64,000 nucleotides of DNA, taken from a phage. The position numbers and the translations under genes are program-made. This document shows, in pieces, positions 3,798-56,929 of the stretch. Position 1 is the first letter of the stretch. Every line of letters begins with the position of its first letter. The notes under the pieces are model-generated. The model had not been told where the DNA came from, did not search any database, and worked only from the letters and a program-made list of their open reading frames with translations. The DNA lies in sequence record PZ452594.1, one strand, 5' to 3'.

Positions 3798-4013
3798 TTA
3801 ATCGTCGCAGTCGACGCTCAATTCCCAAAACTCTTCTACGGTATAAGTTTCAGTATCATTTTCAATACAGAAACGTTCATTACTATTGTTTGCTAAAGTA
3901 GCGTTAACTGTCATTTTCTCGCTGGTGCTCTTAAGAGGTGAAATACGAATTAACTGATCGCCGTTATCTAAACAAAAAATTTCACCAACTTTTACATCTT
4001 TAAAGATTTTCAT
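3798..4013 (-). CDS. hypothetical protein (71 aa)
   Basis: ORF track; position corresponds to T4 ndd.x small ORFs. Confidence 0.5.
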   Translation of the reverse strand: MKIFKDVKVGEIFCLDNGDQLIRISPLKSTSEKMTVNATLANNSNERFCIENDTETYTVEEFWELSVDCDD

Positions 4014-4128
4014 AATTCACCTCAAGGAGTATAAAATCCAAACGCAGTTGTTGACCATCCCATCCAATACGGGAAATTTGCGCCAATGTAAAACATAAGA
4101 ATATAAAACCAACCGCTCAGCAAATTCA

Positions 4129-4326
4129 TCATTTTACACCATTCCAAATTGTTTCAATCACGGATTTTAAACCATTTTGATGAATATCAATTCCGACAAC
4201 TGCCATCAAATAGATTCCAACTACAACTGAACCCAAGGCGAAAATCAGCATGAAAATGAATAAAGCCGGAAAAATATTATCGAAAAACCATTCAATAAAT
4301 GTAAAAGCACTGCGTTTACGCTTCAT
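4129..4326 (-). CDS. small membrane protein (~65 aa)
   Basis: ORF track 4129-4347; start moved to ATG with SD GAGGAAAAT; hydrophobic core IFPALFIFMLIFALGSVVVGIYLMAVV. Confidence 0.5.
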   Translation of the reverse strand: MKRKRSAFTFIEWFFDNIFPALFIFMLIFALGSVVVGIYLMAVVGIDIHQNGLKSVIETIWNGVK

Positions 4327-4333
4327 ATTTTCC

Positions 4334-4447
4334 TCACATAAATCCAAAGTAAACGTTTAATACATCAATCATTAAAACGATTGGGAATATACTCAAAACT
4401 ATTAGTATTATAACTACATTCCATATAGCTTTAACAATCTTTTTCAT
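4334..4447 (-). CDS. small membrane peptide (37 aa)
   Basis: MKKIVKAIWNVVIILIVLSIFPIVLMIDVLNVYFGFM preceded by SD GGAGGAACAG; C-terminal part of track ORF 4334-4582. Confidence 0.45.
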   Translation of the reverse strand: MKKIVKAIWNVVIILIVLSIFPIVLMIDVLNVYFGFM

Positions 4448-4475
4448 TTTCTGTTCCTCCGTAGTTGATAGGGTA

Positions 4476-4505
4476 ATAGTACTACGGAGGAACAGTCTTG
4501 TAAAC
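4476..4505 (-). promoter_or_regulatory. T4-type early promoter flanked by a 14-bp inverted repeat
   Basis: GTTTAC (rc 4500-4505), 18-nt spacer, -10 TACTAT (rc 4476-4481); inverted repeat ctgttcctccgtag / ctacggaggaacag spans the -10 and the downstream SD. Confidence 0.45.
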
Positions 4506-4754
4506 AACTTTTTTAAAAATATTCGTAATAAATGTGAATACCAATCACTACTGCCGAAACCTGTGCAACCCACCACGCACAAGCAATAAGTACAGAATTC
4601 AAAATTTTCATAATAACCTCATCACAAAAGTAAATGTTAAACAAATTACTGGAATACTAATTAACCAAACAAAACACCACCATAATGAACTCATAGTTCA
4701 ATCTCAGCGATTTTCATTTTATTCTCCAAATCTGTATCAGTAGTTGATAGTTGT

Positions 4755-4784
4755 ATAGTACCACGGTCCTTGTGGTATGTAAAC
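4755..4784 (-). promoter_or_regulatory. T4-type early promoter
   Basis: GTTTAC (rc 4779-4784), 18-nt spacer, TACTAT (rc 4755-4760); directly downstream of denB stop. Confidence 0.4.
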
Positions 4785-4799
4785 CATTTTGTGAAATTT

Positions 4800-5357
4800 T
4801 TAAATGGAAAGATACCATCCGTTGTAGTTGCTTTTTCTTACAACCTTACGAAGGTCTTCTCTGTCACCGATGAACTTCGGAGTGTACTGGATGACACCTG
4901 GATGAATTTCTTTAGTGTTGAATATAATTATACAGTCAGCGACTTGATGATTCAGAATGGGCCCTAGATTTATTCCAGAACCGTATGGATACTCTCCGCT
5001 GCATCCGGTTGTTACCGAAATCCATCGTGAGTCAGTTTGATGTGTTTTGACTTCTACACGAAGCCCACAGTATTTTGGATGCGCCAATACATCCCATGCA
5101 TATGTATATGGGTCATTAACATCCTCTTGGCCTTTGTTAACATACCCGCTTAGCCAATCTGCTACAAAAAATTCTGCGTACACAGCGATACGACATCTTT
5201 CAATAACTTCTGCTTTATCCTGGTTCGGGTTTTGTTTTAAAGAGTATCTTGCTGTATCAGCAATTTTGGCCTTCATTTCACTAGTCAAGTCACTGTTCGA
5301 TAGGGTAAATGTCGGAATCTGAAATAGTCTCTGCAAACCCGGATTCGTTTTCTGCAT
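4800..5357 (-). CDS. denB: endonuclease IV DenB (185 aa)
   Basis: 185-aa product, position between rIIB and ndd, sequence recognised as T4 DenB. Confidence 0.85.
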   Translation of the reverse strand: MQKTNPGLQRLFQIPTFTLSNSDLTSEMKAKIADTARYSLKQNPNQDKAEVIERCRIAVYAEFFVADWLSGYVNKGQEDVNDPYTYAWDVLAHPKYCGLRVEVKTHQTDSRWISVTTGCSGEYPYGSGINLGPILNHQVADCIIIFNTKEIHPGVIQYTPKFIGDREDLRKVVRKSNYNGWYLSI

Positions 5358-5420
5358 TTAAACTTTCCTTTATGTCGGAATCATAATTTCCCTTAAAACA
5401 AAAGGGCCGAAGCCCTTATT

Positions 5421-6593: not shown

Positions 6594-8771
6594 TTAGGCC
6601 GCAAGGGCCTTCATAGTTTTGGCGATTTGGGAAACTTCATCATCACTTAAAGAGTTGCGATATCCGATGAAGTCGGAAACAATACGGAATTTCTTGGTAA
6701 ACTCAGCAACCATTTTATCACTGTTTTTTGAAGCATTATTTGATAATACATCAAAAAGATTAGTTACTGTCCAGATGTCATGACCGATGGTATCTTTTCC
6801 ACCATTGAAATATACGCCCCGTAATGAACTAACTATATTAGCGAGTCGTGTATATTCTTCAGAAACATCATCTGTACTGAAATACTTCATCATAAAATCT
6901 AGTTCAGGATATTTAATAATTTTATCAATATATCGTTGAGCTGAACTTGAATAACCTACATACTTATCATAATCTACATCATCAAAAGCATCTACATATA
7001 AATCACGCAAAGCTTCAAAAATACATTGGCACTGACCGAGTTCTTTTACCTTTTTCTGTAAAAGCGGACGAATAACATAAAATTCATTAATGCCAATAAG
7101 ATTAGCCATACGAATCAAAATATTCATAGATGGATGACAAAGAGATGTAGTACCATCCATAGAGAAAATATCAGAACGATGCATATACGCTACATAACCA
7201 GTAATTTCATCTGCTTCTGATGTGAGCGTAAATAATTCCTCTTTTTCCCAACGCCCATCTTTAATTTCAAACTTAAACGCTGTAGCAGCTTTAGGACGAG
7301 GAGCTTTACTTTTAACTACCTTTGGAATATAACTTTTTACTAAAGCTTCAATTTCTGACAAATAATGAATGTTAACTTCATCACTTTCAAACATCGCCAT
7401 AATATCAGGGAGTAAATCAATCTGCGATTCTACTTCTGGGTTAATAAACAGAAGGCGTTCGTTATGATGAATATTTAAAGTGTTATTAAATTCACTATCA
7501 TCTAACGCATGTGCTAATCCACGGACAATATTAACACGATTTTTAATATTATCAATAACGATATTAATTTTTGTTGTATTAATACCAAACAGACGATAAC
7601 TTGATGCAACGGCTGAAGTTTCATGACTTTGCTTAATGCGCTTCAGTCGAGGGTCAAGATTTACTTCATACACAACTCCTGCATTGCATAACTTACTATC
7701 AGGTTCAAACATGCTTTGCATCTTCTTATATGACAGATTTTTAGTCGTAAATTTGACTGAATTACTAATCATATAATCTCGAGCAGAATACCCCATCTTC
7801 ATCAATTCACGATATGTATGACGGGGAGATGTGGATTCTTTAAATCGTTTTACATCTTCATTAAATGCTTTCTCACTGAGTTCTTTAACTCGTTCAATAA
7901 TATTTTTACGAGTACGATCATCCAGTGAAAGAGCCTCGCGAGATGGAGCAATATCAAGTGAACCCATTGGAAACTTAATGTAATTCACTTCATTGCGAAT
8001 GCTTAGCCAGTTACGGTCTCTAATAACACCATCGATAGGATAAACAATACCGCCATAGATAGCATATAATCCACCACGATCAGGCCAGTATCTTTCTGGA
8101 TTTACACCATAATAATCATCAAAATCCGGAAAATAATCAATTTCACGGTCAAGACCATTAATGATAGCCAAATCTTTGAACGGTCGCATGATATAAGAAA
8201 CTTCATAAGCAAAGTTTCTAAAGTCTTTTTCTTCAACTGGAACTACGATTTCAATACCAGTTTTATCATCTGGACCCATTTCTTTTACGAATGTAGGTTT
8301 AATCTGTGGACCATCACCATCCATGTAAGCTACATAACCACGAATTTCACCTTTATGATACGAAGTAATACTAAACGTATCAGTATAACTAAATGGAGAT
8401 TTAGAACCTAAACCAAATCCGCCAATAAAGTCATTAGATTCGGCTTTCGATGAACTGAAGTATGAATTATACAACCCAGGAGAATTATCATCACCTTGAA
8501 TATCAAAATCACTCATACCCGGACCAAAATCTCGACAAACAAATCGTGGATCTAATCGTCCTGGAACTTGAATGATAAATTTTTCAGGATTTCCATTGAG
8601 AGCATGGGCATCAATCATGTTGGTAATCAATTCACGGACTACTGCGCGAATCTTGTTTGTATACAAATCAGATGACAGAATTTTAAATACTTTAGGATTT
8701 GCTGCGATGCTAAATGCTTTTGATTTAGCACCATTACCAAGAATTGTTTCTTTTTCAGTGGTGATAATCAT
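6594..8771 (-). CDS. rIIA: rIIA rapid-lysis protein (725 aa)
   Basis: [30 protein letters not shown]... recognised as T4 rIIA; 725 aa; 11 nt upstream of rIIB. Confidence 0.93.
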
Positions 8772-13835: not shown

Positions 13836-14348
13836 TTAATCTAAGGTAATAAAGCCTTTTAATTCGGCATGCGATTTGCGAAACATTACTTGATGCCCAC
13901 CAATGATAACTTGATCATCTGGCACTTCATAAATCGCAATGTACATTCCACGATCTTTTAAGTCTTCACGCTCTTCTCGAGTAAACCATCTCATTATATC
14001 ATATTCACTAGCGAAAGCAAAATGATATAATGCAATAAACCACAATGGAATATAATTTTCAATTCGTGAATAATCTTTATTCCATTTAGTTTTAATAGCA
14101 TCATTAGCATTTTCAACTAATAACTTATCATCGTGTGGAATAGGAATACTTTCATGACTTTCATAATCATTGCTATGATGATGAAATGATGATGAATTAA
14201 TACCGCAAAATTTTAGCCAAGTTCGAGTTTTCATAGAATCAAATCCACGATAAGGAGTTGATTGAACACATAACTCTTGCCTAATTTTCATTATACCACT
14301 ATCATCATTTAATGCGCTAAACGATGATTCAACACGATAAATTTTCAT
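13836..14348 (-). CDS. hypothetical protein (~170 aa)
   Basis: Track ORF 13836-14387; start moved to ATG (MKIYRVESSF...) with SD GAGGATAATAAA so that it lies downstream of the promoter -10. Confidence 0.5.
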   Translation of the reverse strand: MKIYRVESSFSALNDDSGIMKIRQELCVQSTPYRGFDSMKTRTWLKFCGINSSSFHHHSNDYESHESIPIPHDDKLLVENANDAIKTKWNKDYSRIENYIPLWFIALYHFAFASEYDIMRWFTREEREDLKDRGMYIAIYEVPDDQVIIGGHQVMFRKSHAELKGFITLD

Positions 14349-14375
14349 TTTATTATCCTCAGTAGCTATGGTGTT

Positions 14376-14405
14376 ATAATACCACAACTAACCGAGGAAG
14401 TAAAC
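14376..14405 (-). promoter_or_regulatory. T4-type early promoter
   Basis: GTTTAC (rc 14400-14405), 18-nt spacer, TGnTATTAT (rc 14376-14381). Confidence 0.45.
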
Positions 14406-18930: not shown

Positions 18931-19562
18931 TCAACTACCTCAATATCATAAACTTTAAATGTTCCAAATGAATCGTGTAATTTTTCTTTTGAAATAGAAG
19001 TTATTCTATACTTTCCAATTGGAATCATCCATTCTTGTTCATGTACAATCATCATTAAGTTATCAGTACGCTCTGAATCTAATCCATCAGTGTCTTCATA
19101 CGTGTACTTAAACTCAGTATTAGGAGAAGAAAGTATAATATCGCTGATATGGTCAGAGTAATTAAAAGCTTTATCAGTTTTTAAACGAAGTATTGTTTCA
19201 GTGAAATATTCAGCATAAGAAAAAGAACACGCTGTATGCAAACTAGTAGTAAATGAATCTACCCTGTTCGTTGAAAACACTTCTCCAACCTGTAAATCTT
19301 TAATAAGTTCTTTTGTCGATTTTGATATACCACGATATAATTGATAAGGTGATTTAGTTAAATGCTTTTTAATGATTTTATTCAATTGCCGATGAAGAGC
19401 TTCATTCTTTTTAGCTTCCATACATTGCCAAAGAACAGACTGCTCAAAGTCAGTAAATTTTTCACAGACTTTTTTATACATATCATATTGAAAATCAACG
19501 CTTTCAGCTTTTATAGATAACTGTTCAACATCTGCAAGATTAATAATCATGATAGCCTCCAT
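18927..19562 (-). CDS. modB: ADP-ribosyltransferase ModB (211 aa)
   Basis: R-S-ExE signature (LYRG, FSTN, EQEWMIP); ATGA overlap with modA. Confidence 0.8.
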   Translation of the reverse strand: MEAIMIINLADVEQLSIKAESVDFQYDMYKKVCEKFTDFEQSVLWQCMEAKKNEALHRQLNKIIKKHLTKSPYQLYRGISKSTKELIKDLQVGEVFSTNRVDSFTTSLHTACSFSYAEYFTETILRLKTDKAFNYSDHISDIILSSPNTEFKYTYEDTDGLDSERTDNLMMIVHEQEWMIPIGKYRITSISKEKLHDSFGTFKVYDIEVVE

Positions 19563-19576
19563 ATACTTCAGAAGCT

Positions 19577-19606
19577 ATCATATCATCGTTAGAAAGGAAA
19601 GTAAAC
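19577..19606 (-). promoter_or_regulatory. T4-type early promoter upstream of modB
   Basis: GTTTAC (rc 19601-19606), 18-nt spacer, -10 TATGAT (rc 19577-19582). Confidence 0.4.
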
Positions 19607-30702: not shown

Positions 30703-30954
30703 TTAAAACTTAACAAATAACTTTAAAGCATCTTCAATTTTAATTCCTTTTCTTACACCCATAACAGAAATTGGCTGTGACTGAAATTTTCCTTTACCAT
30801 TATAAATTTCTAATCCAGTCACCATTCCATTTTGTTCTATAATACCGTAAGTGTTACCTTCATTTTCAAATTCTTTAACTTTAAAGAGTTTATTAGCTTT
30901 TTCTGCGTTAACAACTTTTAAATTTTGAATAAAATTAGTTTGAATATTTTTCAT
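30703..30954 (-). CDS. hypothetical protein (83 aa)
   Basis: ORF track; SD GGAGGAACA upstream; downstream of early promoter cassette. Confidence 0.5.
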   Translation of the reverse strand: MKNIQTNFIQNLKVVNAEKANKLFKVKEFENEGNTYGIIEQNGMVTGLEIYNGKGKFQSQPISVMGVRKGIKIEDALKLFVKF

Positions 30955-30982
30955 TTTGTGTTCCTCCGTAGTTGATAGTTGT

Positions 30983-31012
30983 ATAGTACCACAGAGGAAC
31001 AGTCTTGTAAAC
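30983..31012 (-). promoter_or_regulatory. T4-type early promoter (cassette copy)
   Basis: GTTTAC (rc 31007-31012), 18-nt spacer, TACTAT (rc 30983-30988); 52-bp block identical to 56878-56929. Confidence 0.5.
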
Positions 31013-46152: not shown

Positions 46153-46182
46153 ATAATATCATGGTTTGAACTTGTTGTAAAC
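46153..46182 (-). promoter_or_regulatory. T4-type early promoter
   Basis: GTTTAC (rc 46177-46182), 18-nt spacer, TATTAT (rc 46153-46158). Confidence 0.4.
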
Positions 46183-56344: not shown

Positions 56345-56872
56345 TTATGCGAGTACCGTCTTTAACCGTTCTTCAAACTTCCGAAGAGTATTCTGGCGTT
56401 CAGCTCTTTGCTTTTTGTAAGTTTCAATACGCTCTGAAATGAGAGTGTATCGTTCATTTACTGATTCTTTCATAAAATCAGGAATTTCACGAGAAGCTTT
56501 AATCTCGTCAAATTTATCAATAACAGCTTGCTCTTCAGCAATTAAGTTATCATACATCAAAATATCTTTCTTGATGAACTCAATATCTTCTTGAGTTACA
56601 CGAGATAATTTAGATGCTTTATCCTTTTTGTACTGTTCGTTAGTATCACGAGACCAGTGTAATGTACGATTTTTATTCGTATTCTTATAAATTTCTACAA
56701 TACCAATCTCATCAATAATAACGATCCAATTCCAACGGGATTTGTAAATTTGTCCTCCATCAACAGTGATTTCACCTCCGATTGAGATGTCATTAAAGAA
56801 CTTGCTTTGTGCTTCAGATTTAAATTTACCATCATTGTAGTTTACCAAGTTGAAAATATCTTTAGCATTCAT
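56345..56872 (-). CDS. hypothetical protein (~175 aa), coiled-coil C-terminus
   Basis: Track ORF 56345-56932; start moved to ATG (MNAKDIFNLV...) downstream of promoter cassette, SD GGAGGAACA. Confidence 0.5.
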   Translation of the reverse strand: MNAKDIFNLVNYNDGKFKSEAQSKFFNDISIGGEITVDGGQIYKSRWNWIVIIDEIGIVEIYKNTNKNRTLHWSRDTNEQYKKDKASKLSRVTQEDIEFIKKDILMYDNLIAEEQAVIDKFDEIKASREIPDFMKESVNERYTLISERIETYKKQRAERQNTLRKFEERLKTVLA

Positions 56873-56899
56873 TTTTGTTCCTCCGTAGTTGATAGTTGT

Positions 56900-56929
56900 A
56901 TAGTACCACAGAGGAACAGTCTTGTAAAC
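56900..56929 (-). promoter_or_regulatory. T4-type early promoter (cassette copy)
   Basis: GTTTAC (rc 56924-56929), 18-nt spacer, TACTAT (rc 56900-56905); 52-bp block identical to 30961-31012. Confidence 0.5.

Follow-up and report, generated by a model that had tools for sequence, protein, structure and literature searches.

The ndd.4 locus

The 64-kb window (the whole stretch of phage DNA that was analyzed) is a segment of a Tequatrovirus (T4-like) genome, and its positions 4000 to 5400 match more than 500 T-even phage records with 95 to 97% identity. The gene order on the minus strand, rIIB, denB.1, denB, ndd.6, ndd.5, ndd.4 ... ndd, is that of T4. The 37-codon open reading frame (ORF) considered here is the homologue of T4 ndd.4; tblastn searches detected ndd.4 homologues in ∼600 phage records, which come from Tequatrovirus, Gaprivervirus, Dhakavirus, and the CIP9-type phages of Enterobacter and Edwardsiella. 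Directly in front of it lies an early promoter overlapped by an inverted repeat, referred to below as cassette A. The features of the locus are the following:

4334 to 4447, minus strand: ndd.4 ORF, 37 codons, ATG at 4447-4445, end at 4334, encoding a small hydrophobic protein
4451 to 4465, minus strand: 3′ arm of the repeat, ACTACGGAGGAACAG, which holds the Shine-Dalgarno sequence (SD) GGAGG (4460-4456), including a GGAG motif of the RegB type
4469, minus strand: predicted transcription start, an A, the seventh nucleotide after the −10 element, inside the hairpin loop; the homologous base ends the promoter feature of GenBank record X75802
4476 to 4481, minus strand: −10 element TACTAT, in the hairpin loop
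4481 to 4495, minus strand: 5′ arm of the repeat, CTGTTCCTCCGTAGT, in the promoter spacer; its final base (T) doubles as the first of the −10 box
4500 to 4505, minus strand: −35 element GTTTAC of the ndd.4 early promoter, a minus_35_signal in the T4 record X75802
4513 to 4611, minus strand: upstream ORF, homologue of T4 ndd.5, stop codon TAA at 4515-4513
4755 to 4784, minus strand: upstream early promoter (the T4 ndd.6 promoter), a pattern match that is an annotated promoter in X75802

The ndd.6 early promoter is co-oriented with cassette A and lies 279 nt upstream of it, inspection of the sequence between 4755 and 4505 revealed no terminator-like site, and a MotA-type promoter is found at 6737, upstream of rIIB. 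With this layout, read-through into cassette A from the upstream promoter(s) appears plausible. The stop codon of ndd.5 is separated by 17 nt from the first paired base of the cassette A stem, so that a ribosome terminating on ndd.5 should not melt this stem.

The start codon annotated for ndd.4 in T4 (L001 positions 2263-2265, T4 positions 166762-166764) is homologous to window positions 4462-4460. This ATG arose by a C-to-T change in the 3′ arm (CTACGG to CTATGG), at a place where the relatives have ACG, and has no SD in front of it. The true start of T4 ndd.4 is probably the ATG five codons downstream, which would give a 37-aa product.

An inverted repeat spanning the promoter and the ribosome-binding site

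Read 5′ to 3′ on the minus strand, cassette A consists of GTTTAC (4505-4500), aaga, CTGTTCCTCCGTAG(T) (4495-4481), and TACTAT (4481-4476), followed by taccctatcaa, (A)CTACGGAGGAACAG (4465-4451), aaa, and ATG (4447-4445). The inverted-repeat search returned arms of 15 nt that are 100% complementary and lie 15 nt apart. The first-pass annotation had described a 14-bp upstream arm in the promoter spacer; the location was right, and the arm is one pair longer. The downstream arm, as had been claimed there, carries the SD of the 37-codon ORF. Among perfect inverted repeats with a loop of 3 to 40 nt, this one is the longest in the window, and a perfect repeat of at least 15 nt appeared in 3 of 300 dinucleotide shuffles of the window. 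The stretch from the −35 element to the ATG folds with −25.7 kcal/mol, compared to −8.5 ± 2.6 kcal/mol in shuffled versions (z = −6.7), none of which (0 of 200) folded as well.

The ndd.4 promoter is more than a consensus match, since the T4 ndd region in GenBank (X75802) has the promoter, −35, and −10 annotated at exactly homologous bases. A search for a dataset of transcription starts across the T4 genome yielded none. The pattern GTTTAC-N18-TAnnAT occurs 15 times in the window, always on the minus strand, against an expected 0.23. The promoter inside cassette A, GTTTAC-N18-TACTAT, belongs to this early class; no late-promoter sequence TATAAATA is found nearby, and the sequence upstream of the promoter, tatttttaaaaaagtt, is AT rich.

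A canonical terminator role of the stem is unlikely, because it is followed by AAAAUGAAAAAG, with no U-tract. An intrinsic terminator at this site was also considered on either strand and rejected: the minus-strand stem has no U-run, and the T-run on the plus strand begins 14 nt past the stem. Processing by RNase III was considered as well and seems unlikely for a stem of 15 bp. Comparison with Rfam yielded no family at the gathering threshold anywhere in the window and, at the cassette A site, only generic sub-threshold hairpin matches.

Two paralogous cassettes

Two further copies of the cassette are present on the same strand:

30952 to 31012, minus strand: cassette B, stem 31001-30988/30972-30959, 14 pairs including 2 G·U, with promoter, spacer arm, loop, and SD arm as in cassette A
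56870 to 56929, minus strand: cassette C, upstream of nrdC.8, stem 56918-56905/56889-56876, 14 pairs including 2 G·U

Both are near-identical paralogous copies of the whole ∼60-bp cassette A, and the three share the −35 box, the spacer, the −10 box, the loop core CTATCAA, and the SD arm. Each of the stems of cassettes B and C contributes about −20 kcal/mol when the G·U pairs are counted. Both sites had been listed previously, at 30959-31001 and 56877-56919, as shorter 8-bp versions of the repeat; they are present within 1 nt of these coordinates, and their size was understated, as they are copies of the entire cassette with 14-pair RNA stems that include two G·U pairs. The best-supported description of the unit is a repeated early-promoter cassette with three copies in this window, not a hairpin of a single locus.

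Cassette B precedes an 83-aa ORF (30703-30954, minus strand) that is located between gene 43 and imm.1 and is absent from T4. The imm.1 promoter of T4 has the same −35 box and spacer arm joined to a leader of the ndd.6 type, in which the complementary arm is missing. This contrast looks like a PeSL-type, cassette-mediated insertion or deletion, judging from the sequences. Behind gene 43, at approximately 31110-31090 (minus strand) and ∼100 nt upstream of cassette B, there is a canonical intrinsic terminator, GGACCTCCGGGTCC followed by CTTTTT; therefore, read-through into cassette B is probably already reduced. At cassette C, the stop codon of nrdC.9 is 2 nt ahead of the −35 element.

Predicted folding of read-through and own-promoter RNAs

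In folding calculations on read-through RNA, the probability that GGAGG is unpaired was ∼0 in cassettes A, B, and C. Opening the stretch from the SD to the AUG would cost ∼17 to 23 kcal/mol in read-through RNA of these three cassettes and ∼0.7 to 2 kcal/mol in RNA from their own promoters. The comparison of read-through with promoter-proximal 5′ ends that accompanied the first-pass annotation thus came out as anticipated, with the SD fully paired in the former and free in the latter. When the sequence upstream of +1 was shuffled, 0 of 300 shuffles reached the observed occlusion at A, B, or C. Among the 142 SD-preceded ORF starts in the window, the three cassettes hold ranks 1 to 3 in SD occlusion, with 20.3 kcal/mol for A, 17.8 for B, and 17.0 for C against a median of 6.2. 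Gene 49 of the window, the textbook case of such masking, reaches 16.1 kcal/mol and soc reaches 9.4, both below cassettes A to C.

The sense RNA is more stable than the antisense RNA by 2.6 to 10 kcal/mol in 12 of 15 variants, which argues for a role as mRNA-sense RNA rather than as a DNA cruciform.

The fourth most occluded start in the window is that of gene 55 (the region of 44372, minus strand), with 16.7 kcal/mol and nested hairpins. The region of its 5′ arm contains a MotA-box-like ATGCTTTA, and the sequence may represent a middle-promoter version of the same promoter/SD-hairpin logic.

Other early promoters in the window

At five of the 15 early promoters, namely those of cassettes A, B, and C and of motB.2 and modB, the long and short RNAs differ by 8 kcal/mol or more. 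The promoter at 46182 is intermediate (4.9 kcal/mol), and the other nine differ by no more than 1.7 kcal/mol. That such hairpins are a feature of every T4 early promoter was accordingly rejected on account of these 9 of 15; in half of the 16 promoter regions that were folded, the z-scores were unremarkable. The promoter-spanning SD hairpin is a recurrent, not universal, design. The two additional cases are as follows:

14346 to 14405, minus strand: motB.2 early promoter, 17-pair hairpin 14398-14381/14372-14356, in which the spacer pairs with the initial transcript and the SD
19542 to 19606, minus strand: modB early promoter, 18-pair hairpin 19587-19570/19560-19542

In the modB hairpin, the 5′ arm comprises the −10 box with both its flanks, and the 3′ arm comprises GGAGG and the AUG. 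The motB.2 and modB hairpins are unrelated in sequence to cassettes A to C, and both are kept in T4. Folding predicts that they bury the SD (and, in modB, also the AUG) only in read-through RNA.

Strong promoter-spanning hairpins that cover no SD were found at two other sites. At the motB promoter (13318-13284, minus strand), the spacer pairs with the first nucleotides of the transcript, including the leader GGAG that is the classic motB RegB site. This GGAG is not the SD of motB, which suggests masking of a RegB site independently of translation. At 12730-12688 (minus strand), next to a degenerate −35 box, ATATAC, an 18-pair hairpin with a 13-nt perfect core, ATCAGTAGTTGAT/ATCAACTACTGAT, joins the spacer to the initial transcribed sequence, and the GGAGAATAAAATG further downstream stays free. 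Short CCAC..GTGG palindromes that end at the TGG before the −10 box are seen in the early-promoter spacers at 4784-4755, 9040-9011, and 53974-53945 (all minus strand); their folding z-scores are individually not significant.

Conservation and re-invention across phages

Compared to the window, the ndd.4 cassette of T4 has three transitions in its arms (CTGTTCTTCCGTGG/CTATGGAGGAACAG), all of which turn Watson-Crick pairs into G·U pairs in the mRNA sense. A table of 13 distinct variants of the hairpin cassette was compiled from phage genomes, IMG/VR, and metagenomes. When IMG/VR and metagenome contigs were scanned with patterns anchored on the parts of the cassette outside the arms, most matches were due to chance, and only ∼30 T4-like cassettes were recovered, a number that suffices for the variant table and is too small for strong statistics. 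Across the 13 variants, all five variable sites of the 12-bp core preserve pairing through G·U, and disruptions are confined to the two terminal pairs. A G-to-A change at arm position 11, which would create an A·C mismatch, is limited to chimeric cassettes in which the complementary SD arm is missing. The same spacer arm without an SD arm to match it is found, in addition to the T4 imm.1 promoter, in the ndd.6 promoters of some phages.

In each sampled lineage of ndd.4, the promoter region is paired with the SD by means of different sequences, in different registers: CATCTCCGGTGGTTGTAG ... CTATCAACTACTGGAGATG in Gaprivervirus (phage VR7), CATCTCCATTA ... TAATGGAGATG in Dhakavirus (phage WG01), and GTTTACATCCATT ... 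AATGGAGGTGAAT in the CIP9-type phages, where the hairpin is weak (17 of 300 upstream shuffles). In Dhakavirus and the CIP9-type phages, the 3′ arm falls not on the conserved initial transcribed sequence but past it, on the SD. The nrdC.8 cassette of Dhakavirus uses yet another arm pair, ATCTCCAGTAG/CTACTGGAGGT. A column-wise count over 9 Gaprivervirus and Dhakavirus cassettes gave 95% pairing and one compensatory exchange of U-A to G-C, with marginal shuffle support (26 of 500). Because the column covariation is only marginal, more weight is put on the re-invention between lineages and on the upstream shuffles. By these sequence comparisons, the architecture is conserved by compensatory evolution across genera and recurs at motB.2 and modB.

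Two IMG/VR contigs (L107 and L110) represent an nrdC.8 lineage with 85% protein identity in which a promoter-spanning hairpin, AGGTCTAT..ATAGACCT, is located ∼55 to 25 nt upstream of the nrdC.8 ATG. There, the hairpin joins the spacer to the −10 box and initial transcript; the SD is unpaired, with an opening cost of 6.1 kcal/mol. Masking of the SD is not indispensable, since some cassettes and this one nrdC.8 lineage leave the SD free, with another hairpin or with none.

Relation to known regulatory systems

The 2010 review of posttranscriptional control in T4 lists as masked starts e, soc, 49, and I-TevI, along with I-TevII, I-TevIII, mobE, and segB (PMC3014915); ndd.4, nrdC.8, motB.2, and modB are absent from its masked-start cases. 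Similarly to e, 49, soc, and I-TevI, the hairpins of the cassettes bury the SD and/or the AUG, and the transcript from the inner promoter lacks the 5′ arm. In those genes, the long transcripts are silent and the short ones are translated, which in the cassettes is predicted from folding. However, the inner promoter of e, 49, soc, and I-TevI is a late one (TATAAATA), as documented for e and I-TevI (PMC3014915), and the hairpin stops early translation, whereas cassettes A to C have an inner sigma-70 early promoter whose own spacer is the 5′ arm and which would limit translation to the immediate-early transcript. The dual-transcript logic of T4 e and gene 49, invoked when the repeat was initially described, holds for the structure, with the SD buried in the long RNA and free in the short one, and the rationale for the timing differs. 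Given the early class of its inner promoter, the ndd.4 cassette is a variant of this group and not a plain member of it.

The cassettes also resemble the PeSL (promoter-early stem-loop) units of the T4-type phages RB49 and phi1. According to Arbiol 2010 (PMC2839356), these consist of an early promoter with a stem-loop between, or overlapping, the −35 and −10 elements and end with an SD and ATG; an attenuator or terminator function is ascribed to the stems, the cassettes are taken for recombination linkers, and terminator-like activity is reported for one RB49 stem-loop. The PeSL concept was extended to the phage pair PST/T4, with an ndd.4/.5 exchange as the example, in Comeau 2014 (PMC4122927). 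The likeness extends to an internal or overlapping stem-loop in an early promoter, an SD and ATG, repetition between small genes of hyperplastic regions, and gene swaps. The ndd.4 cassette shows every PeSL feature that can be examined in sequence, i.e., an AT-rich early promoter, an overlapping stem-loop, and three copies among small genes. Signs of cassette shuffling are present as well, namely an additional ORF behind cassette B, the chimeric nature of the imm.1 promoter in T4, and ndd.6 promoters with the same spacer arm. Unlike the cassettes described here, the PST/T4 stems lie upstream of the promoter (PMC4122927), and the RB49 stems are of the polyG/polyC type. The portions of PMC2839356 and PMC4122927 at hand contain no SD-masking role for PeSL stems.

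A GGAG(G) in the SD of early genes is also what the cassettes share with the target sites of RegB, nrdC.8 being the gene of cassette C. According to Durand 2006 (PMC1702504), RegB/S1 recognizes GGAG/U followed by 7 nt that are A rich and C poor (11 nt in all), and RegB is inhibited by secondary structure. During early T4 infection, it cuts GGAG/U of nrdC.8 (moderately), motB.2, and modB in vivo. modB is cut despite a structure that is stable in vitro, and Durand et al. suggested that RegB acts on nascent RNA before structures form. The ndd.4 site, GGAGGAACAGA, has a favorable G at position 5 and a disfavored C at position 8. The portion of PMC1702504 examined mentions neither cleavage of ndd.4 nor a complementary arm derived from the promoter or any consequence for long versus short RNA. 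In the supplement of PMC9697503, motB.2, modB, and nrdC.8 have early RNA and early protein, ndd.4 RNA is early in T4, and the ModB signal is flat after its first detection, which fits a pulse of synthesis and is no proof of one.

Early-promoter cassettes have been described at the internal-protein (IP) loci of T-even phages (Repoila 1994, as cited in PMC2839356), where a conserved T4-type early promoter and leader repeats likewise flank small variable genes. In the ip5-ip9-ip7-ip8 locus of RB15 (L064, Z35082), inverted repeats between the spacer and the initial transcript, TGATGAGGTA/TACCTCATCA and GATGGGGTA/TACCCTATC, show a compensatory change of A-T to G-C between cassette copies. Their 3′ arm is the initial transcribed sequence, in contrast to cassettes A to C, and the SD is further downstream and unpaired.

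Proposed mechanism and alternative explanations

The cassettes could operate as follows. A polymerase arriving from upstream would copy both arms, and the 5′ arm (the promoter spacer) would pair at once with the 3′ arm (the SD region) into a 14- to 15-bp stem of −20 to −26 kcal/mol, which would bury GGAGG and exclude 30S subunits. RNA from the cassette's own promoter would start in the loop (at the predicted A4469) without the 5′ arm and would present a free SD in a 22-nt leader. On longer transcripts, the cassette gene would then be a silent passenger, its translation being confined to its own immediate-early transcript. As RegB cuts exposed GGAG in early SDs, the short RNA would be RegB sensitive and the long RNA RegB resistant.

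This dual-transcript reading is structurally well supported, and the differential translation is what the folding models lead one to expect. That the hairpin allows translation from the cassette's own promoter only and hides the RegB site in long RNA is regarded as reasonably probable. The estimate is not set higher because these effects are predicted only, the leaders are short, there are viable cassettes without an SD arm, and one nrdC.8 lineage spares the SD. With leaders of 20 to 22 nt, any long hairpin that spans the start site is forced onto the SD, so its cover could be incidental. It is not obvious what would be gained from silencing read-through copies, because the proximal and the nearest upstream promoters are both of the early class. 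In vivo occlusion may be incomplete if, as proposed by Durand et al., RegB cuts nascent RNA before it folds. Translation would probably be own-promoter-only and restricted to the immediate-early transcript, or insulated from the transcriptional context, and not delayed to late times.

Two other explanations assign the selected role elsewhere. The cassette could be a PeSL-type module in which the stem-loop acts mainly as an attenuator or terminator and as a recombination linker that shuffles small genes, the overlap with the SD being a by-product of the short leader. The definition of Arbiol 2010 and the terminator-like RB49 stem-loop (PMC2839356) agree with this, as does the PeSL exchange that Comeau 2014 invokes for T4 ndd.4/.5 (PMC4122927). 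So do the triplication of the cassette, the extra ORF behind B set against a chimeric promoter in T4, the frequency of chimeras, and the hairpins at 12730-12688 and in the L107/L110 nrdC.8 lineage, which span the promoter and spare the SD. However, no U-tract follows any of these stems, the 3′ arm of ndd.4 in Dhakavirus and the CIP9-type phages passes over the initial transcript to pair precisely with the SD, and the PST/T4 stems of 2014 stand upstream of the promoter, not across it (PMC4122927). Recombination would also leave the G·U-preserving substitutions and the sense-strand bias unexplained, and this account, taken as the main one, is rather doubtful. A similarly doubtful view is that the hairpins were selected to shield GGAG/GGAU from RegB in long polycistronic RNAs, so that delayed-early and middle RNAs survive, promoter-proximal ones are cut, and the block of translation is of secondary importance. 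A GGAG or GGAU is indeed buried in each of the SD-covering hairpins found here, and the motB leader hairpin covers the leader GGAG and not the motB SD. Yet a paired SD blocks ribosomes regardless of RegB, the nrdC.8-type site has a C at consensus position 8 and is only moderately cut (PMC1702504), and cleavage of ndd.4 goes without mention in the portion of that paper examined. Both views are compatible with own-promoter-only translation and do not exclude it.

A purely DNA-level element (a cruciform or a promoter palindrome that binds a protein), or a repeat that arose by chance and was spread as the cassette duplicated, is very unlikely. The arms in the window are perfectly Watson-Crick paired, so that at cassette A alone the DNA and RNA readings are indistinguishable, and the three copies are not independent events. 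Chance is nevertheless hard to reconcile with the shuffles (3 of 300 for the repeat, 0 of 300 for the SD occlusion), and the G·U pairs of the variants would correspond to A·C mismatches in the opposite strand, with the sense strand favored in 12 of 15. Moreover, the arms move relative to the −35 and −10 elements between genera yet stay on the SD, and the same arrangement is found in independent sequence families.

Implications

The ndd.4 promoter, the ndd.4 gene, and the class of cassette are already known. An early promoter whose spacer serves as the anti-SD arm was not found described in the literature examined, and an earlier mention is possible. T4 serves as the reference for gene regulation in phages, and start-masking hairpins that hold a promoter are known there for late promoters only. 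If the early version that translates from its own promoter works, it would add a posttranscriptional layer to the distinction between immediate-early and delayed-early genes and would mean that the spacers of several very strong promoters, otherwise unconstrained, have a function. It would link the PeSL cassettes, the targeting of early SDs by RegB, and the structure-masked starts. It predicts pulse-limited expression of small, possibly toxic early genes, such as ndd.4 and ModB, and it would offer synthetic biology a compact, portable own-promoter-only translational insulator.

A more general proposal, which is tentative and for which the chances fall somewhat short of even, is that T-even phages use anti-SD hairpins within early promoters as a general means of insulation, favored by selection. 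Genes equipped with such hairpins would be translated only from their own immediate-early transcripts, inactivated by RegB, and thus limited to a short pulse of synthesis, and they would be silent and RegB resistant in the long delayed-early and middle RNAs that express distal genes. If true, such control would mirror the late-only regulation of e, 49, soc, and I-TevI and would explain how cassettes can be shuffled between contexts without a change in gene dosage.
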